Shown piece by piece: positions 13,952 to 58,627 of a DNA stretch of 64,000 nt. The DNA comes from an uncultured bacterium. GTDB lineage: Bacteria > Patescibacteriota > Minisyncoccia > Phycocordibacterales > PALSA-1337. Location: contig CAWKEA010000005.1 of the NCBI GenBank assembly GCA_963848635.1, positions 352,585-416,584 of the forward strand, written 5' to 3'. How positions within the stretch are numbered: position 1 is the first letter of the stretch; each line of letters begins with the position of its first letter. The notes beneath the pieces were generated by a model. That model was not told the DNA's origin. It saw only the letters and a program-made list of their open reading frames with translations, and did not search any database. A program made the translations under genes and the position numbers.

Positions 13952-14088
13952 TGGTGTTTTGTGTTTCATCTTACAGATCGAAATAAGTAAAAACAGATGA
14001 GTCTTTTATCTAATTCTATACATAACTAAAAAACATTCTCATTTCGTTATTATTTATGACTCTGGAAAGTATTCAATAAGGTGTATAA

Positions 14089-15803: not shown

Positions 15804-16514
15804 TCATTTTAAAATCAATTCTAAATTTGACTCATTTATATCGTTCAATGAATGTGCCATCGGAAGTCTGTAAACTATTGGAGAATATTTTTTAACTAAA
15901 AAATCAATCTCAGTTGGCGGTATTACATTGTCTTGTAAACCAATAACAACAGTTAAATCACTACTTTCCGTCGGATATTTAACGCTTTTCAATTCCTTTA
16001 TTATTTTTGATACATTAAGTCGATAAACATTAGGATAGCCCCTATAGAGAAACTGAAATGTATGTTCCAAGTCTTCTCCACTGCCGCCAGCTGTATGATA
16101 TGCCATATTTACAAAAGGGCACACTAATATTTTCTTTGCATTGCTTTTAGACAGTAAAACTGGTAAAGCTCCAAAACTAAAACCAATTAAATAAACCGGT
16201 AAATTACTTTGCCACAACACTTCAGACGTATTAAAAGATTCGGTGGCTTTACCTAATTTAATTATTTCTAGTGTCTGATCAATTGTTTTGATGCAATTTT
16301 TAAGAGAAAAGTTACCATCACTCTCCCAACTACCAATATATCTTGGAGTAAAGATGTTATATCCCATTTCAGAGAACTTTTTTATAACAGAATGGTGCTT
16401 ATCAATATATTGTGGCAAACCAGGAGAAATGATGACATTCCCCTTATTGCCATTAAGCCATAGACCAATCAGTGTGTTTTTAAACTTAATCCTTAATTCC
16501 ATAATATTGACCAA
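15804..16514 (-). CDS. alpha/beta hydrolase fold protein
   Basis: GFSFGA nucleophile elbow; 236 aa; start overlaps the upstream ORF by 29 nt. Confidence 0.5.
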   Translation of the reverse strand: MVNIMELRIKFKNTLIGLWLNGNKGNVIISPGLPQYIDKHHSVIKKFSEMGYNIFTPRYIGSWESDGNFSLKNCIKTIDQTLEIIKLGKATESFNTSEVLWQSNLPVYLIGFSFGALPVLLSKSNAKKILVCPFVNMAYHTAGGSGEDLEHTFQFLYRGYPNVYRLNVSKIIKELKSVKYPTESSDLTVVIGLQDNVIPPTEIDFLVKKYSPIVYRLPMAHSLNDINESNLELILK

Positions 16515-17730
16515 AATATAAAAATCTTAACTCATTCAAAAAAGACTTCTCATTTGGATGAATAGATCTATTTGGTAATTTATTTTCTAATAATTTTATT
16601 ATCATAACCATTTTATCATAAGCTATACCATAATAAAAATTATTTATAGCTTCAAGTAATTCCTTTTTAAGCTCTACAAAGCTAGCGGATAAAGGCGAAA
16701 ATAGCTCATATTTTAAAATAGTATCTATTCTCTCTCTTAATATCTCCTGCTCCTTAAGACTATTTTTAATAGTTTCAAAATTAATAATGACATCTTTTGA
16801 AACATTTCTTTTAAGGAAAAAAGATCGCAGATAACTTGGGGACAGTTCATTGAATAAGTTTGTCACCTCTTCGATATTGTTTTGCCACTTAAATTTTCTA
16901 CCATATTTATCAAGAAGAACACCATGACACACAATGTTAGTAGGAAGAAATTTGCTTGGCAAATGACATAAAGAATAATAGCTGAATTTCTTTATTATAT
17001 CACCATGAAAATATATTCTTTTAGAATACGTGCCTTGAACAAGGGCCGGAGTAAGCATAACTATGAAGCGAGGATCCAAACTATAACCATCATACGTAAT
17101 CGTATATTCTCTATTCTTAGTAAGACAGATATTATATTTTTCAGGCATCAGGTTACAAAATGTGACCAATTCTTTTTTAGCTCCAATTGGATAGATTTTT
17201 ATTCTTGATATTGTTTCCAGAATTTCATTTTTTGATATTTTTTGGTAGATAACGTTTTGATCTTTCATATCAACACTTCCGCCACATATTTTACACAAGG
17301 TAATCGTTACGTCTGTACCAAAATCAGAATTACATTTATTGCAAGTCGCAATTGGGATTGATCCTTTTATAATATTTGACTTGCAATGCATATTAACGAA
17401 ATCGGAAAGAATTGTGCTTATTTTATCATCTCTGATTTGTTCGTCAAAATCTATACAATATTTTTTTAATGCTTTAACGCCTTCTTGTATGCATTTATCA
17501 ACGAATTCTTCTCTCGTAGTTTTCGAGACAATTATGTTTTCCCTTTGCATCATTTTCAAAACTGGTAACCCATTTACATTCCAAAGCAATGGGAGACAAA
17601 CTTTTATATCCTGGAAGCGTCGTGATTTTACATAAAAATCCATCAGGATTAAATCGTAAATATTGCCCGGACTCAGTACTTTTTTCACTTGTACTGGAGC
17701 CATTATGACTATTTCATTTTCTAGTTCCAT
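16486..17730 (-). CDS. methionyl-tRNA synthetase catalytic-core paralog with degenerate HIGH and KMSKS motifs (predicted pseudo-aaRS)
   Basis: colinear with the MetRS core: N-terminal block IVIMAPVQVKKVLSPGNIYDLILMDFYVKSRRFQDIKVCLPLLWNVNGLP versus [51 protein letters not shown] (HIGH replaced by PGNIY); zinc knuckle CNKCNS...CKICGG; YFHGDIIKKFSYYSLCHLP versus HFIGKDIVYFHSLFWPAML; KMSKS replaced by KFKWQ; C-terminal anticodon-binding region truncated. Confidence 0.55.
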   Translation of the reverse strand: MELENEIVIMAPVQVKKVLSPGNIYDLILMDFYVKSRRFQDIKVCLPLLWNVNGLPVLKMMQRENIIVSKTTREEFVDKCIQEGVKALKKYCIDFDEQIRDDKISTILSDFVNMHCKSNIIKGSIPIATCNKCNSDFGTDVTITLCKICGGSVDMKDQNVIYQKISKNEILETISRIKIYPIGAKKELVTFCNLMPEKYNICLTKNREYTITYDGYSLDPRFIVMLTPALVQGTYSKRIYFHGDIIKKFSYYSLCHLPSKFLPTNIVCHGVLLDKYGRKFKWQNNIEEVTNLFNELSPSYLRSFFLKRNVSKDVIINFETIKNSLKEQEILRERIDTILKYELFSPLSASFVELKKELLEAINNFYYGIAYDKMVMIIKLLENKLPNRSIHPNEKSFLNELRFLYFGQYYGIKD

Positions 17731-18547
17731 ATATTTTTCTGTATTCTTTAGTTATGGACAACTGCAATTCAGAAAGAAAATTATATGCCATACTAAGACC
17801 TGACATTGTAATGTCATTAGTATGTTCAGATTTGTATTCCAAAAATATGCTTGGATCAATTTTCTGAGGAAACATCTTATGAAAAGTCTGCGAAGCTTCT
17901 TTTCTTGTTTCTGGATATATCTTCCAAAATGCTAGATAATACATGACACCATAAATGCACCATTTCATCATTGTGATTCGTTTTTTTGCATTCAGATCAC
18001 TGTTTACGAGCAGCTTCCGAGCTTGATACGTCAAGGAGCTAATAACTCTTACCACTTCAAGACGCAGATCATCGAGATTAATGTTTTTATTTTCAAATGA
18101 ATTTTTTCCAATCAATTGTCTACCATACATAGACAACTCAATCTGCATGTATAAAGATCTGTTGTTATGCCAAAAAGTTTCTTTTCTTCTCTTGGGCGTT
18201 TCATTATACGTATGAACATTAAAATCTAAATCAAAACCACTCGAATCGTATTTTTCTTTGATTTTCCTTAATATTTTTAATGATTCATTGTCAGCGATTT
18301 TGAGAACTATTAGTATGTCTATATCACTTAGAAAGCAATAATCATCAGACAATGAGCTTCCGTAAACAACAGCGCTTACAATATTTTCTTTCAACAACTT
18401 TTTAAGATGAATTTTTATCGGCAATAATATATTCTCCCTCTCTTCTAAACTATGCATATTAGTATTATACATATAAAAATCTAACTTGCTATTTGCACAA
18501 TCAACAAGCACATTTTCAATTTTTAAGACATTTCCTTTTTTGATCAT
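17714..18547 (-). CDS. Pol-beta superfamily nucleotidyltransferase with C-terminal helical domain (AadA/ANT-like architecture)
   Basis: VVYGSSLSDDYCFLSDIDILIV matches the hG[GS]x9-13Dh[DE]h NTase motif; likely start at MIKKGN (18547), since the listed ORF start overlaps the kinase 3' remnant. Confidence 0.55.
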   Translation of the reverse strand: MIKKGNVLKIENVLVDCANSKLDFYMYNTNMHSLEERENILLPIKIHLKKLLKENIVSAVVYGSSLSDDYCFLSDIDILIVLKIADNESLKILRKIKEKYDSSGFDLDFNVHTYNETPKRRKETFWHNNRSLYMQIELSMYGRQLIGKNSFENKNINLDDLRLEVVRVISSLTYQARKLLVNSDLNAKKRITMMKWCIYGVMYYLAFWKIYPETRKEASQTFHKMFPQKIDPSIFLEYKSEHTNDITMSGLSMAYNFLSELQLSITKEYRKIYGTRK

Positions 18548-18551
18548 GTCA

Positions 18552-18617
18552 CGTGGCAAGAAAAAAGGCGCGCTCACGACCATTTCCCTGCCCTTGAAAC
18601 AGGCGTTTGAGGAGTGA
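18552..18617 (+). pseudogene. histidine kinase 3' terminal remnant (direct repeat copy B)
   Basis: encodes RGKKKGALTTISLPLKQAFEE-stop, about 85% nt identity to the 3' end of the kinase gene at 15709..15779; no upstream kinase ORF. Confidence 0.6.
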
Positions 18618-18649
18618 GGACAAGAGAAAAGATACTCAAAACCGATTCC

Positions 18650-21275: not shown

Positions 21276-21379
21276 TTAATTTAACTCAAAATGCAAAACG
21301 CAAAACCGAAATGCGGCGATATTTGTATTTGCTTTTGAATTTAAGTTTTGCATTTTGATTTTTGAGTTTTGCATTTGAT
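21276..21379. repeat. family-1 intergenic hairpin repeat (arms ACTCAAAATGCAAAACGCAAAAC / GTTTTGCATTTTGATTTTTGAGTTTTGCATTT; conserved loop GAAATGC...TATTTGT.TTTGAATT)
   Basis: long imperfect inverted repeat filling the rplX-rplN spacer; homologous copies at 22768..22870 and 23527..23640. Confidence 0.8.
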
Positions 21380-22767: not shown

Positions 22768-22870
22768 TAAATTTAAAATGCAAAACTCAAAACGCAAAAC
22801 TGAAATGCTGCAATGCACGTATTTGTCTTTGAATTATGCTTTTGCATTTTGAGTTTTGACTTTTGAGTTA
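22768..22870. repeat. family-1 intergenic hairpin repeat; right arm encodes the C-terminal tail of rpsC
   Basis: AAAATGCAAAACTCAAAACGCAAAAC ... GCTTTTGCATTTTGAGTTTTGACTTTTGAG; rpsC stop codon lies inside the element (gaaTTAtgc) and 22837..22866 encode ...VKTQNAKA. Confidence 0.8.
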
Positions 22871-23523
22871 TTAAATATATCTCCCTTGTAGATCCAGACC
22901 TTTATGCCGATGTCGCCATAGGTCATGTGCGCGCGCTCGCGGGCAAAATCGATGTCGGCACGCAAGGTCTGGAGAGGGATGCGGCCTTTCTTGAGCTCCT
23001 CGGAGCGGGCGATATCCGTGCCGCCGAGGCGTCCTGACAGACGAATGCGGGCGCCGCCGACATCGCGGTTCGCCGTGATCTTCTCGATCGATTGCTTCAA
23101 GACGCGGCGGAACGGAAGGCGCTTTTCGAGGCTTTCGGCGATCATCATTGCGGCGATCGCGGCGTTTGACTCCGGGCTACGGACTTCTTCGATGTCTATC
23201 TTGAGCTCCTGCCCTGCTAGGTCTATCTTGTTCTTTTTGAAGAGCTTGAGGATCTTGTCTCGAAGCGCTACCATCCCTTCGCCCTGACGGCCGATGATCG
23301 TGCCTGGGCGCGAAGTGCGAATGGTGACTTTGACTGATTTCTGGTTGCGCTCGATTGCGACGTCGGAAAGGTAATTCGCTCGCAATTCCTCGACCAAAAA
23401 TTCTCGCAAAATGAGATCGGCTTTCAAGGAACTGCGATAATTCTTGCCCGTGCCGAACCAGCGGCTCTTCCAGTCGCGGATGATCCCAAGGCGGTGTGAA
23501 TATGGATGTACGGAGTGTGACAT
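22834..23523 (-). CDS. rpsC: 30S ribosomal protein S3
   Basis: KH domain and S3 C-terminal domain; C-terminal tail SKVKTQNAKA encoded by the repeat arm. Confidence 0.9.
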   Translation of the reverse strand: MSHSVHPYSHRLGIIRDWKSRWFGTGKNYRSSLKADLILREFLVEELRANYLSDVAIERNQKSVKVTIRTSRPGTIIGRQGEGMVALRDKILKLFKKNKIDLAGQELKIDIEEVRSPESNAAIAAMMIAESLEKRLPFRRVLKQSIEKITANRDVGGARIRLSGRLGGTDIARSEELKKGRIPLQTLRADIDFARERAHMTYGDIGIKVWIYKGDIFNNSKVKTQNAKA

Positions 23524-23526
23524 GTT

Positions 23527-23640
23527 AATTAAAGTTAAAACTCAAAACGCAAAGTTCAAAACTAAATGCGCTATCAGAATTATTGTATTTTGAATTAAAG
23601 TTTTGCATTTTGAGTTTTGAGCTTTGAGTTTGCTTTCTCG
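23527..23640. repeat. family-1 intergenic hairpin repeat; right arm encodes the C-terminal tail of rplV
   Basis: AAAACTCAAAACGCAAAGTTCAAAAC ... AGTTTTGCATTTTGAGTTTTGAGCTTTGAGTTTGC; rplV stop at 23595 inside the element; tail ...KANSKLKTQNAKL. Confidence 0.8.
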
Positions 23641-23974: not shown

Positions 23975-24328
23975 TTATTTCTTGTCGGCTGAAGCGGTCG
24001 TGGCGGCCTCTTTGGCGGATTTTGCGGCATTGACTTCAGCCTCCTTTGCCTTGAGCTCGATCTCCTTTTGCATCTTGCCTCCATGGCGGAGGAATTTCTT
24101 TGTAGGCGAAAATTCACCGAGGCGGTGTCCAACCATGTCCTCGGTGACCAAAACGTCGATATGCTGTTTGCCGTTGTATACGCCAAAAGTAAATCCGACC
24201 ATTTCAGGAGAAATGGCCGAGCGACGATACCACGTCTTGATTGACGCTGTCGTGGCGGCTTTTTTGCCGGCTATCTTCTTGAGAAGCCGTTCTTCGACGA
24301 ATATGCCTTTTTTGAGCGATCGTGCCAT
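23975..24328 (-). CDS. rpsS: 30S ribosomal protein S19
   Basis: [16 protein letters not shown]...[27 protein letters not shown]. Confidence 0.9.
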
Positions 24329-24437
24329 GAATTATAGATATTCTAGATAAAAAACGAGCTCGGACGAGCTTGCTTGCATCTTAACAGAGCCTTGATTTGA
24401 AGTCAATACATCGTGCTATACTGATGGTTAAACATCA

Positions 24438-25220
24438 ATGTCATCGATCACCCCAGAAGTCATGCAGGCTTTCCTTATCGCCCTCCTCATACTGCTCATA
24501 GGCTTTTCATTGTGGCGCAAACTGCACGAGAACGAATCCCTCAAATACGAGTTCATAACCATCATCACCCATAAATTCCGCACGCCGATGACGCATATCA
24601 AATGGATCCTGGCGGACTTGATCCAAAGCGAGACTGATCCATACCGCAAAGAGAGCCTGACAAAGCTCGAGAGGTCGAACGACGACTTGGTCCAGCTCGT
24701 CAGCGCCCTCATCGAGGTCACCGATACTCCAAAAAAAGGAAAGGCATCATACCAATTCGAACGCGTTAACCTCGTCGATCTGACCAGGGGCGTCTTCAAT
24801 CTTTTCGACCATTCTTTCAAAGAAAAGAACATATCGATCACGCTCGACTTCCGTACCGCGGACATATTCGTCAAAGTTGACCGTTCTCGATTGGAATTCG
24901 TCCTTTCGACCATCATCGAAAACGCCTCTATGTATACGTCCACAGGGCAGAAAGTATTGATCTCAGTCGGATCAAAATGGAGAAAGGCAATTGTAACAGT
25001 CGCGGATGAAGGCATAGGCATGAGCTCGCTCGACATGCACAATGTCGGCACGAAATTCTTTCGGGCAAAGACTGCGCGGGCAATGGACACCAGCGGGTTC
25101 GGGATCAATCTATATCTGGCCAGATCCATAATCAGGCGCCTCCATGGCAAGCTCGAGATCTATTCTGCGGGATTAAAGACTGGCTCGACATTCAAAGTTA
25201 TATTATCAAAAGTCACGTGA
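24438..25220 (+). CDS. sensor histidine kinase (single TM, HisKA, HATPase_c)
   Basis: H-box ITHKFRTPMTHIKW; C-terminal GFGINLYLARSIIRRLHG. Confidence 0.7.
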   Translation: MSSITPEVMQAFLIALLILLIGFSLWRKLHENESLKYEFITIITHKFRTPMTHIKWILADLIQSETDPYRKESLTKLERSNDDLVQLVSALIEVTDTPKKGKASYQFERVNLVDLTRGVFNLFDHSFKEKNISITLDFRTADIFVKVDRSRLEFVLSTIIENASMYTSTGQKVLISVGSKWRKAIVTVADEGIGMSSLDMHNVGTKFFRAKTARAMDTSGFGINLYLARSIIRRLHGKLEIYSAGLKTGSTFKVILSKVT

Positions 25221-25280
25221 AGGCACATTGACAAGAGCAAGCGGAAAAATAAAAATTAAATCGTTCAGTGATCGCGCCTC

Positions 25281-26580
25281 CTATTCATATCTCAAAGCCT
25301 CGATCGGGCTCTTTTTGCTCGCCTGCCGCGCGGGATAGCCGCCAAAGACGAGGCCAATGACTGCAGAGACAGTGATGCCGAGGATAGCGCCTGACCACGG
25401 AAAGACGAATTGCCAATTGATCGCAAGAGCATGCGAAAGGATAAAGGCGATCAGAAACGCGAGACCAGAGCCGAGCAGAATGCCGACGACACCGCCGATA
25501 ACAGTCAACAAAACCGCTTCGAGGAGGAATTGCGATAGAATGTCGCGATTTTTCGCACCGAGCGCCTTGCGCAAACCGATCTCGCGCGTGCGCTCGGTCA
25601 CGGAGACGAGCATGATATTCATGATGCCGACGCCGCCGACGAACAATGCGATAGAGGCGACTGCAACGAGGAACCATGTGAGCGCCGAGGTGATCGTGCC
25701 GAGAGTATTGGCCAAACTTTGCTGCGTCTCGACAGTGAAGTCATCCTTTGTCGGATCGGTTATGCCGTGCGACTCCTCGAGAGTCAATTTTATATTAGCG
25801 GCAGTGACCGGGACAGTCTGGTCGGATGATGCTTGGGTTATGACGCGATTGTAATACTTTTGGCCCGTGACGTACGTCATGGCTGTCGTGTATGGCATGA
25901 TGACCATCGAGTCAAAGTCGAACAATGTGCCCCCGCCTGATTTCGGCAGCACAGCGACGACGCGAAAATTTCGTCCCTTTATCGTTATGTTCTGATTATA
26001 CGGATCCTGATTCTCAAACAGATAATTCGCTACATCAGCTCCAATGACGACGACGCTCGACATAGAATCGACATCGCTCTGGTCAAAGAACTGCCCTTCC
26101 GAAGGAGTGATGTTGAAAATGCTGGCCATGAGGTCAGTGCCGCCGAATATTGTGACCTGGTAAGTGTTCGGGCCATATGAAGCGGCGTCAGAGCCGATGA
26201 CCACAGGCATGATGGATATGAGGTCGGGCACATTTGCTTTGCTCATGAGAGCGGTCACATCCTTTGGCTTCAGCGAGTCGCTGTAGAGCGCAGAGGCGCC
26301 TGCTCGACGGGCTCGTGGATACTTGGCCCGGAATGATGGCGATAGTGTTCGTGCCGAGGCCCTGGACCTCGCCAAGAATAAGGTTCTGCGCGCCCGCCCC
26401 GAGCGACACGACCAACATGATGGCCGTGATGCCGATGACGATGCCGAGGATGGTCAAAATCGACCGCGAACGGTTCGTGCGCAGGCCGGTGAATGAGGTT
26501 TTAAATAAATGGCGGATGGTCATGGTTTTATTGTGTAAGCAACTTGAAAGCAGTATTAAATGCTTCATCGGCAGTTTCAA
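25281..26580 (-). CDS. ABC transporter permease, FtsX/MacB family (frameshifted near 26330)
   Basis: N-terminal TM plus periplasmic domain in ORF 26188..26580 continues in ORF 25281..26375 after IIPG; C-terminal four-helix FtsX domain. Confidence 0.7.
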
Positions 26581-26600
26581 ATGTTTGATATCCGTACTTA

Positions 26601-27098
26601 TCAGCTCTCTTCTTTATAACGCGGCCGTTCGACATTAAAGAAAGAGTTTGCTTCCATTTCTTGCAAATGACGGGTGTTGCCCCATCGTGGATCTTCAATA
26701 TTGCGCTTTAGTATGTCTTCGTACGACTTACCAAGAAGCACAATGCCCGGAAAATCTAAATCTTTCTTGGCAAGATGAGGTAACAGGTTAACGCATTCAA
26801 AAATTACTGGCATTTTCTCTTCTTTAAATGAATTTATTTTTTCAAGGAAAACCGGCCACAAACCTTCTGATTGCAAGACGATATTATTCCATTGCTTGTC
26901 CTTGCTGGTTTCAGTGTAGTATTTTTCCTCATTCTTATCCAAGAAAAAGTTGACCCATTTCCCGTACCTACCATCTGAAGCCAACGATTCTCTGAAATCA
27001 TCGAGAGAAACGATAATGCCGCCTGTCTTTTTAGCAAGTTTTTTTGCGAGATATGATTTGCCCGAAGCTGGAATTCCTGTGATAAATAGTTTATTCAT
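26601..27098 (-). CDS. P-loop NTPase/kinase-like protein
   Basis: Walker A GIPASGKSYLA at N-terminus; 165 aa. Confidence 0.5.
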   Translation of the reverse strand: MNKLFITGIPASGKSYLAKKLAKKTGGIIVSLDDFRESLASDGRYGKWVNFFLDKNEEKYYTETSKDKQWNNIVLQSEGLWPVFLEKINSFKEEKMPVIFECVNLLPHLAKKDLDFPGIVLLGKSYEDILKRNIEDPRWGNTRHLQEMEANSFFNVERPRYKEES

Positions 27099-27146
27099 AA
27101 TATTAAATTTGAGTTATACACAATGTCGTCTTGAATCATGCTATAC

Positions 27147-28091
27147 TTAATCCATCTGGGCTCCCGCAGATGCGGGACTCAGAGAGTTGCCCAGCAAAGA
27201 CGGTTGCTTCTCGTGATAATGCTGAGCTATTCTCTTGGTCCTACCCGATAAACCTGGTATGTACTTTTTGACAGCGACTATGTTGATTTCATTATAGTGC
27301 CTTCTGTTCAAGGTTTTGTGAATGCCTTTAAACGATATCGAGTTCTTTAGCTGTGCGCTAATTTGCTTCGTACCTTTCTTGTTTTGAAGAAAATATAGAT
27401 TACAAGTATAGGCAATTATATCAGCCAATTCCAATCCAGCAGATAGGACCTCTTTGTTGGCAAAAGATATAGATACTACAGATTTCTTTAAAGACTTAGC
27501 CAAGCTTACTAAATGTTTATTCTTGAAAGAATTTCTATCTGCAACCAAGTTATAGTTCCTAATAGTAAAAGGGTCGCCTGCCCTGCTTTCAAAAACAATT
27601 TTTAATCTTCCATTATTTTTTAATTCCCTCACAGCCCAGTGATAAAGGGCATTAACACCAACATCCAAAGGAAGTTGGTTATCGACTCGGGAATAAAATC
27701 TCTTTGTAGCAATCCAACTGTCTCCTTTATCAGGATATTTTTTGAAAGACAAACATCTTCTGACTAAATCTTTTGGCACACAAACCGCAAGATAGGTGAC
27801 GTTGTATCCTTTTATCAAATCCCATATTTCCTCTTGAAACTTTTTTCTTAAATCTTTTTTACTTCTTTTACGTGTAGTGCCTAAATAGCTTTCTGTATAA
27901 TCATTCTCAAATATATCTACCGCATGTATATGTTCATCCGGAGATAAATTATACTTTTCTTTCAATCTTTTGATCAAAAAAAGGAAATTCCCTTCATTAA
28001 CTTCGTCAATCAAAACACCACAAACAATGGTAAATTTGTCCTTCGAAGAAAGTTCTGGCGTTCCTGATTCATCTATATACAATATTTTCAT
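27147..28091 (-). CDS. DUF3800 domain protein
   Basis: N-terminal MKILYIDESG signature typical of DUF3800; 314 aa. Confidence 0.5.
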   Translation of the reverse strand: MKILYIDESGTPELSSKDKFTIVCGVLIDEVNEGNFLFLIKRLKEKYNLSPDEHIHAVDIFENDYTESYLGTTRKRSKKDLRKKFQEEIWDLIKGYNVTYLAVCVPKDLVRRCLSFKKYPDKGDSWIATKRFYSRVDNQLPLDVGVNALYHWAVRELKNNGRLKIVFESRAGDPFTIRNYNLVADRNSFKNKHLVSLAKSLKKSVVSISFANKEVLSAGLELADIIAYTCNLYFLQNKKGTKQISAQLKNSISFKGIHKTLNRRHYNEINIVAVKKYIPGLSGRTKRIAQHYHEKQPSLLGNSLSPASAGAQMD

Positions 28092-28147
28092 AAATTTTTA
28101 TTTCACCCAGTAGGCGACTCAATAGAGTCGTGTTCTGGACTAAATTG

Positions 28148-28876
28148 CTATTTCACATATTCCGCATCCGCGGAAAGCCTATTTTTTACCTTCACATCGC
28201 TGTCGATCGCGCCGTCCATAAGGCGGATGATGCGCTCGGAATGCTCGGCTGTGGCCGTTTCGTGCGTGATGAGAACGATCGTCTTGCCCTCTTTTTCATT
28301 TAATTTTTGAAGGATGGACATGATATTCTTGCCGGATTTACTATCGAGATTACCCGTCGGCTCGTCAGCGAAAATCACGTCCGGGTCAGTGACGAGGGCA
28401 CGCGCGATTGCCACGCGCTGCCGTTCGCCGCCGGAGAGCTCGCTCTGGTCATGGTTGAGTCGGTTGCCGAGGCCGACCGATTCGATCGCCTTCGTGGCTC
28501 GCTCGTTCCATTCATGTTCGGGAATATTGTCAGAATAGACGAGCGGCAATTTTACGTTCTCGAGCACGCTCGTGCGGGCGAGGAGATTGAAAGCCTGAAA
28601 GACAAAGCCGAGCTTTTGGTTGCGCAGATACGCCAATTCGTTCGAGTCATACGAAGTGATATTCTTGCCGTCAAAATGATATGTGCCAGACGTCGGCGTA
28701 TCGAGGAGGCCAAGGAGGTGGAGCAATGTCGATTTGCCAGAGCCTGACGGCCCCATGATGGCCATGAATTCGCCTTTGCGCACATTAAAGGTCACTCCGG
28801 CCAATGCGACTGTCGCCTCGCTGCCGTCGCTGTACGACTTCCTCAGATTTTTAACTTCTATTATGTTTTCTGCCAT
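28148..28876 (-). CDS. ABC transporter ATP-binding protein (MacB/LolD-type)
   Basis: Walker [10 protein letters not shown], signature [15 protein letters not shown], Walker [13 protein letters not shown]. Confidence 0.85.
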
Positions 28877-28885
28877 TGAAAAATG

Positions 28886-30431
28886 TTAGGAACCAATATA
28901 CGTCACCACTTTGTCTCCAGGCTTCAAGCCAGAGAGGATCTGCACTGAGCCATCGGAGCCTTTGAGGCCTGTCGTGACGGGAACGCTTGAATACATCAGA
29001 CCATTCGTGGAGACGAGCCGTACATCGGTTGATGTTGAAGTGATCAAGAGCGCACGATACGGGATCTCGAGGACATTATCTGTCTCGTGGGTCAATATCT
29101 CGATATTCGAGGTCATGCCGCTCTTTATACGGCTGTCCGGAGAGATGAATTGGAGGGTGACCTTGTATGTCGGTACGCCCTCGAGAACGGTTTCGGCAGG
29201 ATCGATCATGACCACCTTCTCTGGGAAGTTAACGTATGCGCCGTATGCATCGAGCGTGCTCGACGCTAGGTCTCCGACAGCCACCTTGGCGATGTCAGCC
29301 TCGGCGACGTATGCCTCGACTTTGAATCCGCTATTCTGCACTGCAAAGCCGCTCTGCCCCGGCGCCACATATTCGCCGACATTAGGGTCTTCTTGCGTGA
29401 CGATGCCGTCGATAGGCGAAACGAGAGTATCTTCCGCGAGGACAGCTTGCACCTGCGCGACTTTTGCAGCCTGGGCGGCGATCGCATTTGGAGTCGATCC
29501 GGATTGCTGGAGCGTGAAGGTGTTTTCCGCCTGTGCATATCCAGATTCAGCGCTCTTTAATTCCGTATCAGCCGCAGAGATCGTACCGATCGCCTGGTTC
29601 AAAGGTAGAAAGAGATGTATTCATGGTCGCCACGGCAGAATCGATAGCGGATTGCGGTAGACCAGAGTTGCCAGGGCTCAGATTGTTCACAATGACAGAA
29701 AGATCGGTCAAGTAGCTCTTGATAGTCGATAGATATCCTTTCGCATTAGAGATGAGCTGGCTCGTATTGGTCGCATCTGCGTTGCTTGAATCGATCTGCC
29801 AGTCATCGAGCACGGTTGCGATCTGCAAACGTTCGTTATTTATGGAAAGCGAGATAGTGTTCGATTGTGTGCGCACATTTATCGTCGGATTTGCAGTCTG
29901 TGGATTGGTAAAGAAGGTATCGCCATAGTTCACGACAGCACTTTGTGCCTGCACATAGCCGGTATGTATGGCATTTACCGCATCAGATAGGGCGTTTGCA
30001 AGGCTTGTGGAAGCTGAACCGACGGCAGATTGATCTGCGGCGTATTGTGCCGACGTAAGGCCGCTCGACATATCGGCGAGAGTCGCTTGTGCCGATGCGA
30101 CCGCCGCTTGGTCGTCGGCGCTGTCGAGAGATGCGATGGGATCGCCTGCCTTGACTGTATCGCCGACATTGACGTAGATCTTTGAGATGACGCCCCCTTT
30201 TTCAAAGGCGAGCGCGGCAGACGAGACCGGCGAGACAGTGCCAGTGACGCTGACCTGCTCAACCACGTTGCCGATCTGTGCAGTCGCATACTGGAAATTC
30301 GGCTTCTTCGGCTTTTCTTTTTCATAGACGATACCAGCGATGATGAGAACGATGACGATGCTCATGATGACCCATTTGTTTTTCAAGTGACGGAAGTGCG
30401 ATTTTTTCATATGCAAAATTATAACATACAA
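28886..30431 (-). CDS. HlyD/MacA-like periplasmic adaptor (membrane fusion protein), frameshifted near 29570-29600
   Basis: N-terminal TM and coiled-coil in ORF 29568..30431; beta-barrel/lipoyl-like C-terminal half in ORF 28886..29602; ORFs overlap 35 nt. Confidence 0.65.
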
Positions 30432-30517
30432 GCCGTTAGCCGACTATTTTTATTTCACTTTTTTAGGCAAAGAAAAAGCCGGGCTGGATCGCGCCAGCGC
30501 GGCTGTGACTGATAATT

Positions 30518-31804
30518 TTAGAACTTGAGGACGTGCTCCGGACCGGAGAGCTCGGTATAGCGATGCGCGAGATCCTCCTGCGTCTCGCCATGACCGATAC
30601 GAATGACACTGCCGTCTTCGCAAAGCATCAACTCTTGCGGCCGTAGGCGGCCATTATAGTTGAAACCCATAGCTATCCCGTGCGCGCCAGTATCATGCGT
30701 GACGACGAAGTCTCCTCTGTAAGCAGTCGGCAGTGGCATGTTGCGCGCCAATACGTCGCATCCTTCGCAGATAGGCCCAGCGACAGTTTGCGGCTTGATG
30801 TCAGCGGTCCGTTCGACGCCCGAGGGATCGAGTATCGTGCAATGGTGGTATGCGCTCGGATAGATTCCTACTCGCATGAGACCTGGCATCGCAGTCGGCA
30901 CACCGATGAAATCGCCATATTTGCGATAGATATTGATAACGGGATTCACGAATACGCCGTGAGGACCCGTTATGTACCTGCCGCTTTCGGCGAATAGCTT
31001 TGGCGTGTAGCCATACGTGCGGGCGAACTGATCCAATATCGACCTGCATCCGATCGCATAGCTATCAAGATCGAACTCAGATTCATTCAAACGATATGGG
31101 ATGCCGAAACCGCCGCCGACGTCGATGAATTCGAGGGAAATCTTGAGACGATTACTGATTCCACCTCCAACCTCAGCCAAGAGGTTTAAGCTCTTCAACA
31201 GATTCAAGTAGTCCAGATCGTTAGAAAAGAACATACCGTGGATACCGAACCTCTTTACGCCGCGATCCTTTGCCCGGCTGACGAGTGCCATCATCTGCTC
31301 GAGAGGCACGCCATATTTCGAGCTCGTGTCGATCTTGCCGCCGCCCTGGGACGGATTCCTGTCGCCTGAGTTAAGCCGGAAACAAAGAAGCTCGGGAAGC
31401 GGACCAGAAAGTTCGCCCAGAAAGATCTCGTCATCGAGATTGATGATCGATCCACCCTCGGAAAGCGCTTCTTGGAATTCCTCAGACGACGTGTCGTTCG
31501 ATGTAAAGATGATGTATTCAGGCCGAGCGCCCGCGTCACGCGCTAAGTCCAATTCACGGATCGAGCTACAGTCAAAACCACAGCCTTCGCTCTTGATTAT
31601 GTCCATGATGGCCGGATTCGGAAGGGCCTTGACCGCAAAGAACTCCTGAAAAAGGATTTCCCTTTGCGAAAATGCATGCTTAAACCGTCGTATGGTCTCC
31701 CGTATCCCTCTTTCATCATATATATGGAAGGTCGGCCCGAATCTTTCGGCTATTGCCGGCAGTTTCGGAAAAAGACGCTGTTTGAAGCTTTCTGACATCG
31801 GCAT
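30518..31804 (-). CDS. PLP-dependent Orn/DAP/Arg decarboxylase family protein (putative diaminopimelate decarboxylase)
   Basis: FIDVGGGFGIPY, ESGRYITG and GPICEGCDV motifs of fold-III decarboxylases. Confidence 0.65.
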   Translation of the reverse strand: MPMSESFKQRLFPKLPAIAERFGPTFHIYDERGIRETIRRFKHAFSQREILFQEFFAVKALPNPAIMDIIKSEGCGFDCSSIRELDLARDAGARPEYIIFTSNDTSSEEFQEALSEGGSIINLDDEIFLGELSGPLPELLCFRLNSGDRNPSQGGGKIDTSSKYGVPLEQMMALVSRAKDRGVKRFGIHGMFFSNDLDYLNLLKSLNLLAEVGGGISNRLKISLEFIDVGGGFGIPYRLNESEFDLDSYAIGCRSILDQFARTYGYTPKLFAESGRYITGPHGVFVNPVINIYRKYGDFIGVPTAMPGLMRVGIYPSAYHHCTILDPSGVERTADIKPQTVAGPICEGCDVLARNMPLPTAYRGDFVVTHDTGAHGIAMGFNYNGRLRPQELMLCEDGSVIRIGHGETQEDLAHRYTELSGPEHVLKF

Positions 31805-32063
31805 ACTATCTCCTTCGTTGTTTGTTGTTGTGCAGTATTGGTTGTAAAAGACCGACTCAAAGACTGCTTTTTTGCTTTGTGTCTGAATCGAACATTACTC
31901 GTAAGTATCAATGATGTCAAGGTGAACGAGTTGACAGAACTACTTTTACGCGCTAAAAAGGACTTAGAATTATCGCACAATCGCCGTTCCGAAAGGAATG
32001 GCTTTTTATTTCAAGAAAAAACCGCCGAGCTTGTGAAAGCCCGGCGATATGAGATTACGTAAT

Positions 32064-33437
32064 TCAGAATTCCAATTTGGTTTCCTTGAGCCTGCGAACG
32101 ACTTCGGCGATGACCGACCCATGGTCCGGCAGACCATATTCCGGCTGAGGAAATATCGTCACAGCCCAACGCAACCACGCATTGCCCGAGATCGTCACTG
32201 GCATGAGCGAGATACGCTTGTGCTGTCGGAGCCAAATAGTGCACTCGGTCGCATTCGAAAAGACGACGCCATCGGCCGATACGGGTGCTTTGGTCAGAAG
32301 GCACAGCCCTGCCTCAGGCATAGAGGCTCCAAATCCAGTTTCCGCAAGCCCCGCGATCAAGCCGCCGTGCAACTCATAATAATGGTTGCGCATGCTCACC
32401 GCAAACTCGGGATTCTTGAGGCACCAGAGCATTGAAGCGATGCTCGGTCCAAAGCCGCCGGAATCCTTTACATCAGTGATCTTGCGGATGGCCTTGATGA
32501 GGGTCGGGTGAGCGATCATCCATCCCATGCGCAATCCCGTGGCATTCCAACCCTTGCTCACGCTCTGCAAAACGATGCAACAGTGCTCCCAACCGGCAAT
32601 ATCGAGAACGCTCACGCTATCGTTATAGCGCAGATGGGTATATGCCTCGTCGACGACGACGATGACGTCGTTTTTCGTCGCCCACGCGATGAGGTTATCC
32701 CAGTCCGATAACGAGAACGTCGTACCAGTCGGGTTATGCGGGATGTTGAGATACAGCACTGTTCTCCTTAACCCGGCCGACGCCGATGCTTCAACGAGGT
32801 AGGTCATCCTACCGTAGTCGATATAGTAACGTCCACCAGACAAGACGAGAGGTATGTCCTCTATCTTCGCTTGCAAGCTATTTATATCGCTCTTCACGAC
32901 GGCGTAGCTCGGATTCGGGAAGAGCAGGAGCGTTTCGCCATCGAGCAGTAATGATGGTATGTATTCAGCCAGCGCCCGTTTGATCGAACCGGGAGAATAT
33001 TGGACCCAGTCTGGGGTGAATACCACATCTGAATAAGGGTGCATCATGTTCAAGAAATCAGCGATGGCTTCATGCGTGCCAGGGATGCCGTTATTGTCGG
33101 TATAGCGCGTCGCCTGAGGGTTCGAGCTATAATATTCCATCGCCGCTTCCATCGCCTCGAGAGGCATCTTTACCGTAGGATCGGCGACTGACAGGCAACA
33201 AAGCGCAGAAGAGGGATTACTAGGGATGCTTTGCATGGCCAACTCCCGCTCTGCGCTAAGAACCGCACTGAATGAATATCCCGTGCCTGGCTTGTCGAAT
33301 TCGGCGCCACCATAACGAGAAAGCATGTGCCGCCGCCAGAATGTATCAAGATCTGACATAATATGTTTAAGTTTTAAGTCAATGAACTGCATGGGTTCTG
33401 AGACCGATATGCGCCGGAAGAACCCGTTCCGAAGCAC
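32064..33437 (-). CDS. class I/II PLP-dependent aminotransferase (possibly LL-diaminopimelate aminotransferase-like)
   Basis: NPTG and SKGWNATGLRMGW lysine-motif region; true start probably an internal Met. Confidence 0.6.
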   Translation of the reverse strand: MLRNGFFRRISVSEPMQFIDLKLKHIMSDLDTFWRRHMLSRYGGAEFDKPGTGYSFSAVLSAERELAMQSIPSNPSSALCCLSVADPTVKMPLEAMEAAMEYYSSNPQATRYTDNNGIPGTHEAIADFLNMMHPYSDVVFTPDWVQYSPGSIKRALAEYIPSLLLDGETLLLFPNPSYAVVKSDINSLQAKIEDIPLVLSGGRYYIDYGRMTYLVEASASAGLRRTVLYLNIPHNPTGTTFSLSDWDNLIAWATKNDVIVVVDEAYTHLRYNDSVSVLDIAGWEHCCIVLQSVSKGWNATGLRMGWMIAHPTLIKAIRKITDVKDSGGFGPSIASMLWCLKNPEFAVSMRNHYYELHGGLIAGLAETGFGASMPEAGLCLLTKAPVSADGVVFSNATECTIWLRQHKRISLMPVTISGNAWLRWAVTIFPQPEYGLPDHGSVIAEVVRRLKETKLEF

Positions 33438-33551
33438 TTTCTGAACATCACCCTACAAAATATCCGATATAATGTCAAGAAAAACACGGGTCTTTGCCCG
33501 TGCCGTTCTTTTGTAAAAAATTTTGAATCGTTCAAACCGGCCTCCCTCTTC

Positions 33552-34400
33552 CTACTCTGCCTTCTTCTTGCCGACTTGTCTGCGCGAGACGATGAAGATG
33601 TTCGAGTATTTCTTTGGGGTGCGGGTCTTTTGACCCTTGCCGGCAGGCTTGCCCCAACGGGTCTTCAGACGGCGTAGACCGCGTCCGGTGCGTTGCTCGC
33701 CTCCGCCATACGGATGGTCCACAGGATTTTGAGCCGAGCCGCGGACTGTCGGACGGATGCCCATCCAGCGCGACCGTCCCGCTTTGCCGATAGTGACCAA
33801 ACGATTTTCGTCATTCGACACAGCGCCGATAGAAGCCCATGCAGTATCGATGATCTTGCGGATCTCGGTCGAGGGCATTTTTATGTGCGTATAGCCGGCG
33901 TCATTGGCGATGACTTGGGCAAAAGAACCAGCAGAACGGACGAGACGTGCACCCCCTTTTGGCTTTATTTCTATGTTGTATATAAAAGAGCCGACGGGAA
34001 TATTGCGGAGAGGCAGGCGATTTCCCGAAGAGATCTCCGCTTTTTCCGAGACGAGGAGCTGTGAGCCGACTTTGACGTCTTTTGGAAGGAGCACGTAGCG
34101 CCTTTCACCGTCAGTGAACTGAACAAGACCGATAAAGCCTGTGCGGAAGGGGTCATATTCGACAGTCTTCACGATAGCAGGCATGTCTTTTTTATCATAT
34201 TTGAAATCGACGAGGCGATAGAGCTTCTTATGACCGCCGCCCTGGTGGCGCACCGTGATACGGCCTTGGTTGTTTCGAGCGGCATCGCGCTTGAATCCGA
34301 CGGTCAACGGCTTGTAAGGCTTCCGAAACCGTCACATGATCCTTGAACGAGATCGTGGTCATATGCCGGCGCGATTTTGTGAATGGTGGGTAGTGTTTCA
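33552..34400 (-). CDS. rplB: 50S ribosomal protein L2 (frameshift near 34310 separates the first ~28 codons)
   Basis: N-terminus MKHYPPFTKSRRHMTTISFKDHVTVSEA read from 34400; remainder YKPLTVGFKRDAARNNQGRITVRHQGGGHK... in ORF 33552..34307. Confidence 0.85.
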
Positions 34401-34411
34401 TGTTAATTAAT

Positions 34412-34837
34412 TTAAACGAATTCGATCTTCTCTCCCTTCTTGAGATATACCATCGCCTTTTTCACGGCATTCGATGTACCGCGCTTGCCTCTGACAAAAA
34501 CACGTTTGGCTGGAAGGTTCACTATCCTGACTTTGACCGGCGTAACTTTGTACAAAGCTTTGATAGCGTGTGCGATCATCGGCTTATTGGCATTCTCGCG
34601 CACCTCAAAAGTATAGACGCCCGAGCTCTCGCTCATGATGCCTGATTTTTCGGTGATGCGCGGACGGAGGATGATATCGTGGTGTTGGCCGCGATGAATA
34701 GCCAGCGCATCTGAGACCTTTTCGGCGCCAGGAATAGTGGCGACCTTGGCTTTCTTGGCCACGACTTTCTTTTCCTTCTTGACTGAAGTGTCCTTGATGG
34801 CGACCTCCTTATTCTTTTTTGATCCAAATAGCGCCAT
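34412..34837 (-). CDS. rplW: 50S ribosomal protein L23 (with Lys-rich N-terminal extension)
   Basis: ILRPRITEKSGIMSESSGVYTFEV. Confidence 0.8.
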   Translation of the reverse strand: MALFGSKKNKEVAIKDTSVKKEKKVVAKKAKVATIPGAEKVSDALAIHRGQHHDIILRPRITEKSGIMSESSGVYTFEVRENANKPMIAHAIKALYKVTPVKVRIVNLPAKRVFVRGKRGTSNAVKKAMVYLKKGEKIEFV

Positions 34838-34843
34838 GGTGGT

Positions 34844-35632
34844 TTATTTTTTAGTTACGGGCTTCTTTGCAGTCATGTGCGCATGAGCCATCGTTGAAGA
34901 TTTTACAGGAGCGGGCTTTTTTGCGATGGCAGGCTTTTCAGTATCGGCTTTCGCTTCTTTCTTCGCCTCTGCTTTTGCTTCGGCTTTGACTCCAGCAAAG
35001 ATCTTCCCTGCCCCAGCGATCACGATATATTTGCAATTCAAGGCCATCAGAGGATTCATGTTGCGGTATTCCTCGATCGATATGTTTCCGAAATTATTGA
35101 AGCCTTTGACCGCGTTATCGCCCTTTTCGTTCATAGCGATGACGGCGGCGTTCTTTGGTTTGGTAGCGAGCTTCTCGAAGCCTTTTATCGTAGCGAGGTC
35201 GAGGACGACTTCTTTGGCTTCCTTTGTCTTTGGGTTCTCCAGAGCCAAGCTGTCGAGGAAAAGGATCTCATTATCGCGGAACTTCTTTGAGAGGATGACA
35301 TTGAGCGCCTTTGACTTTGCCTGCTTGTTGACCTTGCGGTCGTAGTTCTTGTCGTTGCGCGGGCCATGAGTGACGCCGCCGCCTACCCATATAGGAGATC
35401 TGATGGAACCGTGACGGGCCTTGCCGAGGCCCTTCTGTTGCCACGGCTTCCTTCCACCGCCTCTCACCTCGCCTCGCGTCTTTGTGTGCGCTATTGGGTC
35501 GCGTGCTGACGAGCGGAGAGAATTGACGACTTGGTAAACGAGGTCGGCGTTCCACGGCAAACCGAAGATGGCTTCCGGCAGAGCGATCGTCCCAGCTTCC
35601 TTACCCTTTTGATTGTAGATTTTTGTTTCCAT
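34844..35632 (-). CDS. rplD: 50S ribosomal protein L4 (with Ala/Lys-rich C-terminal extension)
   Basis: TRGEVRGGGRKPWQQKGLGKARHGSIRSPIWVGGGVTHGP. Confidence 0.85.
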   Translation of the reverse strand: METKIYNQKGKEAGTIALPEAIFGLPWNADLVYQVVNSLRSSARDPIAHTKTRGEVRGGGRKPWQQKGLGKARHGSIRSPIWVGGGVTHGPRNDKNYDRKVNKQAKSKALNVILSKKFRDNEILFLDSLALENPKTKEAKEVVLDLATIKGFEKLATKPKNAAVIAMNEKGDNAVKGFNNFGNISIEEYRNMNPLMALNCKYIVIAGAGKIFAGVKAEAKAEAKKEAKADTEKPAIAKKPAPVKSSTMAHAHMTAKKPVTKK

Positions 35633-35650
35633 GATGATGCTATGCGTTGC

Positions 35651-38142: not shown

Positions 38143-38248
38143 ATTTTACAGCCATTTAATATTTTAGTAATAAAATAGCTACATCAAGTCCAAATTATGT
38201 TGATTGACAAGTTAATACATTTAAACCATCATTTGTATATCTAATAAT

Positions 38249-39287
38249 ATGTCGTTCAAGATATCATACCAAATAAAAGATAAAGACATCAGAAATCTAG
38301 AACTTATATCTAAAACTGATGGGTATTTACAAGTATTAAGAATGAACCCCGTATGGTCAACTTTGCTCGAAAAAGAAGCTAGGATAACGGAAGCGGTAAG
38401 TTCCATCGGAATAGAAGGAACGATAATTTCCATTGAGCAAGCAAACGCAATCACTGTTGGTGAAGAAAACGTACATGTTGGGGAAAAGGAAAAGAGAGAA
38501 TTTCTCGGCTATTATGAGTCATTAAACTATATTAGAGGTGAAATCGATAGCCCACTAACACTGCAATTACTCCTTAAAATCCATGGAAAGATTACAGCTG
38601 GTGATCCAAAAGCTTCTCCTGGCAAAATAAGAACTGATTTGAGGGCTGTCGCAAAAGATGGAAAAGTCATATACAAAGCACCTCCACCAGAACACCTCAG
38701 TTTTCTTTTAAGAAGCTTCATTGAATGGTTCAATAATACCGCTTCAGACAAGGCTATTTCACCAGTTATAGCGGCTGCAATATGTCATTTTTGGTTTGTA
38801 TGGATACATCCATTCTGTGATGGTAACGGGAAGAGTTGGAAGATTACTTACAACGTTTCTACTATTGAAAAAGAAGTCTGAGGGAGTTAAATATTTTGCT
38901 CTCTCAAATGATTACAATAAGGAAAAAGATGGATATTATGACTCTTTAAAAAAGACTAACGTATGCGATCCAGAGGTTCCATCAATGAATTTTGACAACG
39001 ACTTATCACTCTGGATAACTTATTTTATATATTCATACTTAGTTCAGATGGAAGATATAAAAGAGGTTACAAATCGGATATTACAATTGAATATAAAAAT
39101 TGAACATCTCAGAGAGGATGGCTTAATTACTTCAACTCACAACAAAGCACTCGCATTTTTATCATCAAGAAAAAAGACATCTTACCAAGAATTTGAAGGG
39201 GCACTTAAAATTTTCTGCTCCGAGAGTAAATCAAATATTAAAACCCCTCCGCTCAGCACGTATACTTGTCGAGGAACAGATAGGTAA
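38249..39287 (+). CDS. Fic/Doc family protein (frameshift inside the Fic motif near 38845)
   Basis: HPFCDGNG in ORF 38249..38881 continues as RVGRLLTTFLLLKKK in ORF 38796..39287, together forming HPFxDGNGRxxR. Confidence 0.65.
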
Positions 39288-43521: not shown

Positions 43522-43893
43522 GATAAGTTAATGATTAATCAAGCTTTTCAGGGCTATTTTTCTTAATAAATTAAAGAATACTTTCTTTCGTCTTCGCTCG
43601 GACGATATATCCGCTAGCGGCTACATCGATCCTCGCTAGCCGAAATAAAAAAGCGTCGAGGCTTTTAGGTAAGGCGATTGTACAGGAAATGAGCGGAAAA
43701 TGCAAAAATCACCTCGGCAATCGCTTTGATTCTTTTTTCTTGCCCTTGTATTTAGCTAAAATCCTTTCTGAGACAAGATTAAAAGATTTCTATCAGTTCT
43801 TCATGCAAATGATCGAACTTATCAATATTCGATTCATCGGACCATTTATTGCCTTTGGCAAATTCTTTGACCAAAATCTGTGCTTGCGATATT

Positions 43894-58618: not shown

Positions 58619-58627
58619 GAACGTATT

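Follow-up and report, generated by a model that had tools for sequence, protein, structure and literature searches.

A DUF3800 gene with a structured RNA element at its 3' end, in a block inserted into the MacB-type efflux operon of a Patescibacteria genome

Introduction

What places a DUF3800 gene and a P-loop kinase gene between the ATPase and permease genes of a MacB-type efflux operon, and do the two belong together? The locus that raises this question lies in a stretch of 64,000 nucleotides (nt) from contig CAWKEA010000005.1 (assembly GCA_963848635.1), referred to here, at its whole length, as the window. The contig, 515,952 base pairs long, is of Paceibacteria type within the Patescibacteria, and its close homologs come exclusively from such genomes. 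A reading made from the sequence alone had described a 314-amino acid (aa) DUF3800 gene and a 165-aa open reading frame (ORF) with a Walker A motif, on the same strand between the ATPase and permease genes, and had speculated that they form an inserted toxin, defence or nucleic acid-targeting module. This arrangement is confirmed by the coordinates and the Pfam matches. The DUF3800 gene bears a structured RNA element over its own 3' end, and the explanation proposed here, which we regard as moderately probable, is that an acquired block holds an unrelated kinase together with a DUF3800 nuclease that would act with this RNA.

Since 2017 it has been known that DUF3800 proteins are accompanied by at least 11 unrelated structured RNAs, and such proteins have been recruited by retrons and class 2 CRISPR loci. 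The RNA motifs that accompany DUF3800 genes are eleven in number and named DUF3800-I to -XI (Weinberg et al. 2017, PMC5737381). The literature describes the DUF3800 domain as an RNase H fold with a DEED arrangement, and the DUF3800 proteins of retron type VII are reported to lack the Q of the QxxD motif and to share this arrangement. Accessory proteins combining tetratricopeptide repeats (TPR) with DUF3800 occur at Cas12a2 (V-A2), Cas12a3 and VI-F loci. No paper was found that assigns a function to a DUF3800 protein or to its RNAs. The DUF3800 gene of the window, with its ORF-overlapping RNA, is a variant of this known yet unexplained protein-RNA association.

A structured RNA element at the 3' end of the DUF3800 gene

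The element comprises 93 nt covering the last 31 DUF3800 codons and the stop codon, and folds into three stems (P0, P1 and P2):

27147-28091, minus strand: DUF3800 protein, 314 aa, beginning MKILYIDESG (Pfam DUF3800; predicted RNase H2-like nuclease)
27146-27238, minus strand: structured element over the 3' end and stop codon of the DUF3800 ORF (alignment A5 and folding)
27231-27235 with 27181-27185, minus strand: stem P0, AGAGA/UCUCU
27220-27227 with 27189-27196, minus strand: stem P1, GCUCAGCA/UGCUGGGC
27172-27177 with 27162-27167, minus strand: hairpin P2, UCCCGC-AUCU-GCGGGA, followed by a conserved GCCCAG

Hairpin P2 is nearly invariant among the related loci (numbered here with the prefix L), in the form GAGUCCCGC-N4-6-GCGGGAGCCCAG. 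Comparison of the homologs at the DNA level reveals that CTCTGAGTCCCGC-N4-GCGGGAGCCCAG is preserved as a nucleotide sequence, although the proteins are only ~50-55% identical. Stem P1 consists of 4-8 base pairs (bp) whose sequence differs in almost every locus, as in GCGAAGC/GCUUCGC (L052), ACGGAA/UUCCGU (L039), CUAAUC/GAUUAG (L005) and CGGAAA/UUUCCG (L002), and P0 is found as GGAGA/UCUCC in L028 and is lengthened to 8-10 bp in L002, L028 and L058. In the alignment of 11 distinct loci (A5), 83.6% of the cells assigned to stems are paired, compared to at most 53% when the partners are slid against one another, and eight pairs are changed on both sides (17 cells), a count that none of 500 shuffles reached. 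Stems P0 and P1 are thus kept by covariation. The same three stems were returned by RNAalifold without guidance and, in 9 of the 11 loci, by the minimum free energy fold of the single sequence. The window copy has a folding z-score of -2.66, being surpassed by only 1 of 200 shuffled sequences, and three G-U cells are compatible with the sense strand only.

The element is translated as LSPAxAGAQ in most homologs, but three reading frames are used for it among the homologs, or the stop codon precedes it; the 5' arm falls in another frame in L058, where the loop is 6 nt long, and the stop codon of L004 lies inside the element. In the structural model, the stretch of protein encoded by the element is disordered, with a predicted local distance difference test (pLDDT) score below 50. 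Since the 5' strand of P0 forms part of the conserved RTKRI coding sequence, the element belongs to the DUF3800 gene. It is present in all seven loci recovered through protein homology alone, and its presence there is no artefact of a pattern search, because these loci were found through the protein only. A covariance model (R1) placed the element only at these DUF3800 genes, one per locus, and gave no additional copy elsewhere in the window, beside the more distant DUF3800 genes (L006-L018) or at the DUF3800 gene of L054. A motif search in metagenomes produced 34 loci, of which ~27 are GC-rich chance matches without DUF3800; the real ones are L026, L028, L038, L039 and L052 only.

Comparison with Rfam gave no match in window positions 24000-31000 at E<=1, chance-level matches only (miRNA, snoRNA) for the 281 nt of 27050-27330 at E<=10, no match on 15 related loci, and none at the gathering score in six other loci of the subfamily. 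Rfam 15 does hold DUF3800-I and DUF3800-IX. The element is an RNA structure outside Rfam that would join the eleven unexplained motifs associated with DUF3800. A scan for promoters and terminators yielded counts not clearly above those of shuffled controls, and P2 is no canonical terminator. The spacer downstream contains a box, GTATAGCA (27139-27146), that is semi-conserved in all loci of the subfamily, together with a -10-like TGTGTATAAC. In the form TA(T/C)(A/C)(G/C)CA, the box stands 12-16 nt 3' of P2 in the window and in L002, L004, L005, L028, L038, L039, L058 and L059. Its presence at each locus of the subfamily means that the conserved element may reach past the 93 nt that were modelled.

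The DUF3800 protein

The protein matches Pfam DUF3800 (PF12686) with 37.4 bits against a cut-off of 21, over residues 3-231 and profile positions 1-147 of 149. The N-terminal DE motif of the family is present as D7-E8 in YIDESG, both residues being at least 90% conserved among 24 homologs, in which E168, E221 and D224 are invariant. At the C-terminal QxxD motif the protein instead bears L-E221-L-A-D224, an ExxD with an invariant E in place of the Q and an equally invariant D. Residues D7, E8, E168 and D224 are candidates for a catalytic set of the DEED variant. The fold is RNase H-like and resembles that of RNase H2, and the protein is predicted to be a metal-dependent nuclease.

Its likeness to the DUF3800 proteins that accompany RNA motifs extends to the Pfam match, the DE motif, the RNase H-like fold and a dedicated structured RNA adjoining the gene. 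The protein differs from the Pfam family in its length of 314 aa, with an extension of ~80 aa at the C-terminus past the Pfam domain, and in bearing ExxD rather than QxxD; the RNA differs from DUF3800-I to -XI, which are intergenic, in overlapping the 3' end of the ORF, in its Patescibacteria host and in matching no Rfam family. The adjacent Asp-Glu of IDESG at the end of strand 1 resembles the DE motif of RNase HII. Identity with type 2 RNases H (RNase HII/H2/HIII) is 8-15%, however, and the DUF3800 protein has extra helical inserts, a Glu as its third acidic residue (DEED) and a gene that is accessory rather than core. Neither the DEDD tetrad of type 2 RNases H nor a Pfam RNase HII match at E<=0.01 was found, and a profile search of the PDB returned no RNase H and was uninformative. 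The DUF3800 proteins of retron type VII and the TPR-DUF3800 proteins belong to the same domain family, and the former share the loss of the Q and the DEED arrangement. The retron- and Cas-linked systems have a non-coding RNA or an RNA-DNA hybrid at their centre, whereas the gene of the window stands alone with its own RNA; the annotated flanks contain no reverse transcriptase gene and no Rfam CRISPR repeat family adjoins it, although cas genes and TPR domains were not specifically searched for.

The subfamily is rare, with 26 homologs among 5.8 billion clusters and only six representatives at E<=1e-30 among 1.84 billion. Its genes have a guanine-cytosine (GC) content of 33-36% compared to 41-48% upstream in L002, L004, L005 and L038, and in each of the five DUF3800 loci whose flanks could be measured in full the gene is lower in GC than the host DNA, a difference that is not seen in the short contig L028. 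The genes are found in the orders RuvB, DUF3800, YebC-RuvC (L058) and MnmA, DUF3800, AlaRS (L005) and, with a tyrosine recombinase (integrase) directly upstream, before NusA (L002), in each case on a single strand. Other DUF3800 genes adjoin a restriction-modification pair (L056) or LexA/PemK, or lie in an HTH_17 region (L059). The DUF3800 gene behaves as a rare, foreign, single-gene accessory or mobile unit that usually stands alone among housekeeping genes of the same strand.

An insertion at a strain-variable junction

The remaining features of the efflux operon and of the block within it, in the direction of transcription, are as follows:

28886-30431, minus strand: MacA/HlyD-type membrane fusion protein (Pfam HlyD_3, HlyD_D23 and Biotin_lipoyl_2)
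28148-28876, minus strand: MacB-type ATP-binding cassette (ABC) ATPase, 242 aa, intact (ABC_tran, 119.6 bits)
28092-28147, minus strand: left junction of the insert, as read from the sequence
27099-27146, minus strand: spacer between the element and the kinase start, likewise from the sequence
26528-27098, minus strand: P-loop kinase of the nucleoside monophosphate (NMP) or small-molecule kinase fold; the ORF as assembled covers 26601-27098 (165 aa)
25281-26523, minus strand: MacB FtsX permease (Pfam MacB_PCD and FtsX)

The ATPase is 88-92% identical to its closest full-length homologs. Nine relative loci were recovered around two ATPase homologs (89-90% identical to the window), and in seven of these (L060, L061, L063-L066 and L068) only 3-4 nt separate the ATPase stop codon from the permease start (TAA-aac(c)-ATG), the gene order being fusion protein (509-510 aa), ATPase and permease. 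Of the other two, L062 stops just within the permease and L067 holds a different insert. The sequence-only reading was thus right that the ATPase and permease are normally adjacent, and the DUF3800-kinase block is an insertion because the two genes lie only 3-4 nt apart in close relatives. The insert is compositionally foreign, with a GC content of 35.7% in the DUF3800 gene and 38.4% in the kinase gene compared to 52.9% and 54.4% in the ATPase and permease.

The site has received other genes as well. The ATPase protein of L067 (P0163) is the same as that of five contigs with an empty site, yet the junction is filled by four genes, which encode a DUF5678-like protein of 70 aa, a retropepsin-like Asp protease, a 23S_rRNA_IVP protein of four helices and a product of 107 aa. 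The ATPase-permease junction is a recurrent, strain-variable insertion hotspot in this lineage, since a locus with the same ATPase protein as the empty sites holds different cargo. Identity with the window in the ATPase, kinase and permease is 77-78% for L026, which ends at the kinase start, and for L052; in both, DUF5678 and Asp protease genes replace residues 1-280 of DUF3800 at the same site, and the last ~34 DUF3800 codons, the spacer and the kinase are retained. The breakpoint of this replacement lies 9-13 nt upstream of stem P0. The alternative cargo shared by these loci is:

L067 3090-3722, L026 548-1180 and L052 1061-1726: two-gene cassette of a DUF5678-like 70-aa gene and a 138-aa retropepsin-like Asp protease (DSGA motif)

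The cassette protease has weak PADLOC matches (25-26 bits) to the defence candidates PDC-M52B and PDC-M08B.

At the left edge of the insert, GTGAAATA of the ATPase 3' end (28149-28156) recurs at 28099-28106, with a hairpin GACTC-TATT-GAGTC between the copies. In both the window (28092-28156) and L067 (3011-3044), the repeat GTGAAATA(G) flanks a hairpin TTTCACC-TACTG-GGTGAAA, the window copy of which is broken by 27 nt containing GACTC-TATT-GAGTC. The junction caattt...cctactgggtgaaata is common to the window and L067, ahead of different cargo, and the ATPase stop codon is TAG at filled sites and TAA at empty ones. A search for target-site duplications or terminal repeats of the insert gave only the GTGAAATA(G) repeat and the small hairpin of the left junction.

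The macAB operon itself, with a divergent histidine kinase gene (24438-25220), is situated between rplB (L2) and rpsS (S19), at 23975-35650 of the window. It therefore interrupts the S10 ribosomal protein operon, both in the window and in its relatives, as read for the latter from the loci with longer flanks (L060 and L063). The spacers of the neighbouring ribosomal genes (21281-21370, 22768-22871 and 23537-23625) contain inverted repeats of a CAAAANN heptad, for example AACTCAAAAGTCAAAACTCAAAATGCAAAAGC ... GTTTTGCGTTTTGAGTTTTGCATTTT, with 17 matches against 0.22 expected. These are translated as 'KTQNAKA/L' tails of the S3 and L22 ORFs, and similar repeats (L067 3723-3770 and 4470-4510) bracket the pair of 23S_rRNA_IVP and 107-aa genes in L067.

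The kinase gene

The kinase bears a Walker A motif of the sequence GIPASGKS and just exceeds the cut-off of Pfam AAA_33 (27.4 bits versus 27). More than 399 homologs are 60-84% identical to it and nearly all are ~190 aa long; the named sources are Paceibacteria or other Patescibacteria, with a metagenome-assembled genome of a Nanoarchaeota as the single exception. Housekeeping surroundings were found in two of the three other kinase contexts examined, namely beside a Gmk/Adk fusion, TsaD and aminoacyl-tRNA synthetases (L053), and in the order aminoacyl-tRNA synthetase, ASCH, kinase, TatD, S6, SSB, S18 (L055), with DUF3800 absent from both. The third, from another Paceibacteria genome (L054, 6001-7664), consists of the kinase, a 115-aa gene and then a canonical 214-aa DUF3800 (Pfam, 54 bits).

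The best structural matches are shikimate, gluconate, dephospho-CoA, adenylate and UMP-CMP kinases, and zeta toxin is not among the top matches. Like the small-molecule kinases of the NMP kinase fold, AK6/CINAP included, the protein has a Walker A motif, a P-loop core of five strands and a lid; its sequence identity with the top-ranked solved kinases is at most ~18%, and its family, unlike the known small-molecule kinases, is mainly confined to Paceibacteria. No NCBIfam equivalog comes near its cut-off, the Pfam Zeta_toxin match remains below threshold (16 bits versus 22.3), and a sequence search of the PDB was uninformative. The PADLOC matches are VakA (26 bits) and Csx3 (13 bits) and nothing else, and similarity to a PHROG polynucleotide kinase (33 bits) covers the N-terminal P-loop only. 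Neither a hidden Markov model match above cut-off nor a specific structural similarity places the protein among the zeta toxins or polynucleotide kinases.

Nor does the kinase accompany this DUF3800 subfamily at other sites. In gene tables and tblastn searches it was not found in any other locus of the 314-aa DUF3800 subfamily, the exceptions L026 and L052 being the same site, and the tblastn matches were confined to the same-site loci L001 and L052. Six subfamily contexts had readable flanks and all are without the kinase (L002, L005, L056, L058, L059 and a JGI contig). The gene encodes an ordinary small-molecule or nucleotide kinase of Paceibacteria and has no tie to DUF3800. Of the module proposed from the sequence, the insertion stands, at a site that is moreover a hotspot, and one of its genes is predicted to encode a nucleic acid-cutting enzyme, but the two genes are no conserved unit. 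The suggestion of a toxin or defence pair fails with the absence of the kinase from other subfamily loci, of any PADLOC match for DUF3800 and of a Zeta_toxin match above threshold. The earlier reading had itself named housekeeping contexts and a structural match to an ordinary metabolic kinase as findings that would speak against it, and the kinase displays both.

Interpretation and alternative explanations

The explanation favoured here holds that a low-GC block of 1.6 kilobases (~26528-28147) was acquired horizontally into the 3-4 nt ATPase-permease spacer, bringing two functionally unrelated genes. The DUF3800 gene would encode a metal-dependent, RNase H2-like nuclease and constitute a single-gene accessory or mobile unit, the last ~90 nt of whose transcript adopt the three-stem fold. 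The protein would plausibly recognize its own RNA in a sequence-specific manner through P2, and protein and RNA together may form a ribonucleoprotein nuclease that acts on nucleic acid, perhaps in defence or in selfish maintenance. The kinase would have come with or before DUF3800, and it remains when the body of DUF3800 is replaced. A partnership of RNA and nuclease is suggested because other DUF3800 branches are tied to RNA motifs, to retrons and to Cas12a2, Cas12a3 and VI-F loci.

Several observations weigh against this explanation. The hairpin P2 never varies and so contributes no covariation, and the element is short. Where the DUF3800 protein has been lost, in L026 and L052, the element is nonetheless kept and its P1 can still pair, which fits a protein-independent, cis-acting role at least as well. 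No recombinase, terminal repeats or clear target-site duplication were found that would account for the mobility of the block or of DUF3800, and the protein has no relatives in collections of phages, viral contigs or plasmids and no matches in a PADLOC search. The third acidic residue, E168, was assigned from conservation and secondary structure rather than by residue-level superposition. The proximity of kinase and DUF3800 in L054 may also leave room for a loose functional link between the two.

The main competitor treats the element as a cis-acting mRNA signal, be it a 3' stabilizer, a processing site, a terminator without a U-tract or a leader for the downstream kinase. The element does lie at the 3' end of an ORF and 48 nt ahead of the next start codon, it keeps its pairing in L026 and L052 where DUF3800 is lost and the kinase kept, and a block of 158 nt (27094-27251) spanning the element and spacer is 86% identical between the window and L026 compared to 77-78% in the coding flanks. 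We nevertheless consider this reading rather unlikely: P2 and its flanks are conserved in sequence across proteins of ~50% identity and before unrelated downstream genes (NusA, AlaRS, YebC or none), which is unusual for terminators and stabilizers, there is no T-run after P2 and the terminator scan did not report it, and dedicated RNA motifs are known companions of the DUF3800 family as a whole. The original notion of a single module for toxicity, defence or nucleic acid targeting, made up of DUF3800 and the kinase, for example a nuclease with a zeta-toxin-like or polynucleotide kinase, is very improbable. The two genes are adjacent, on the same strand and both of low GC, the kinase has the weak matches to VakA, the PHROG polynucleotide kinase and Zeta_toxin noted above, and L054 supplies a second case of proximity; against these stand the other loci of the 314-aa subfamily, which lack the kinase, the large and highly conserved kinase family residing among housekeeping genes, the retention of the kinase where DUF3800 is replaced (L026 and L052), and a kinase structure that matches metabolic kinases, with Zeta_toxin below the Pfam cut-off.

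A further possibility is that DUF3800 and its 3' RNA constitute a programmable RNA-guided nuclease of a selfish element, comparable to TnpB/IscB with their omega-RNAs or to a free-standing homing endonuclease, with the RNA scaffold over the end of the ORF and the guide beyond it. The predicted RNase H-fold protein, the structured RNA overlapping its ORF, the occurrence of a single-gene unit of foreign GC at many different loci and the eleven RNA motifs of other DUF3800 genes would all be in keeping with this. HEARO and IS605-orfB, motifs from earlier surveys of the laboratory that described the DUF3800 motifs, were reportedly later shown to be the guide RNAs of IscB and TnpB. The Rfam 15 table lists the two motifs next to DUF3800-I. 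The likeness to the TnpB/IscB (OMEGA) systems is one of architecture alone, in that both are small mobile units with an RNase H-fold ORF and a 3'-overlapping structured RNA, and the protein has neither sequence nor close structural membership. There was no sign of a guide segment, of transposon ends, of a TnpA partner or of a distribution in many copies, the element being single-copy in the window and in each locus; a RuvC with WED/REC, a guide-bearing omega-RNA and IS200/IS605 ends were likewise not seen, and the protein is without an obvious large lobe for RNA binding or target recognition, making this reading distinctly unlikely. Extremely unlikely is the view that the element is an attC-like recombination site in single-stranded DNA and the junction a small cassette array served by a tyrosine recombinase. 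A promoterless ORF followed by an imperfect inverted repeat, the turnover of cassettes at a single site, the replacement breakpoint close to P0 (9-13 nt) and the tyrosine recombinase directly upstream of DUF3800 in L002 would fit such an array. No integrase (IntI or other) adjoins the window locus, however, and a recombinase is present in only 1 of ~9 contexts; core sites or R/L boxes (GTTRRRY/RYYYAAC) are absent, P0 being AGAGA/UCUCU; the element is not found behind other cassette genes, L067 having none; and the G-U pairs favour RNA.

Significance

The DUF3800-RNA association can be examined here in a very small and clean form, as a 314-aa protein and a 93-nt RNA reside in the same transcript and the RNA consists of one invariant hairpin, likely a protein handle, and two covarying stems. 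A bolder form of the favoured explanation, to which we give little credence, would make the pair a compact ribonucleoprotein nuclease in which P2 is the protein handle and the adjacent variable sequence directs the enzyme, in the manner of an omega-RNA and possibly programmable; if true, it would also explain the eleven DUF3800 RNA motifs and why retrons and Cas12a2/Cas13 loci have recruited the domain. The locus would gain high importance only if the RNA turned out to guide or regulate the nuclease. Apart from the RNA, the locus shows that a strain-variable hotspot for cassettes persists even in a Patescibacteria genome of ~0.5 megabases, within an efflux operon that in turn interrupts the S10 operon, which bears on the exchange of accessory genes among reduced genomes.

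Frameshifts and further low-GC islands in the window

The kinase ORF is 165 aa long as assembled, as the sequence-only reading had it, whereas its relatives are ~190 aa; the ORF is shortened by one additional base at ~26607, and the C-terminal 25 aa (ADKYGYQTFETADEAFNTAFKLLTQ) follow in another frame at 26528-26602. The shorter length is probably an assembly frameshift. Two neighbouring genes are split by +1 bases as well. The membrane fusion protein, a single gene of 509-510 aa in relatives, has an extra C at ~29601 compared to L060 and L063, and tblastn with the L060 protein recovers residues 1-273 in frame -3 and 273-508 in frame -1. The permease, a single gene of 413 aa in relatives, has an extra A at ~26302 compared to three of them, with residues 1-74 in frame -2 and 74-413 in frame -3. 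Elsewhere in the window, polA (58600-61145, minus strand) is broken up into four or more reading frames but has kept every motif, comprising a 5'-exonuclease, a polymerase to Taq residue 706 and two more shifts before an intact QVHDELV motif; this points to indel errors in the assembly. An independent short-read contig, L001, diverges from the window exactly at the kinase shift. All three +1 shifts, in the fusion protein, kinase and permease, are likely consensus errors; decay of the operon was rejected as the preferred reading of them, as polA is broken yet has its motifs intact and L001 diverges at the kinase shift. Such errors are patchy, since EF-G and EF-Tu are intact in the same window.

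The window contains more low-GC islands (30-42% compared to ~50% elsewhere), at 3261-4134, 12797-14005, 15804-18649, 38225-39287 and 43575-44946, whose content includes a Polbeta-type nucleotidyltransferase, a possibly split Fic-domain ORF, an ORF6N-domain protein and a nucleoside 2-deoxyribosyltransferase.

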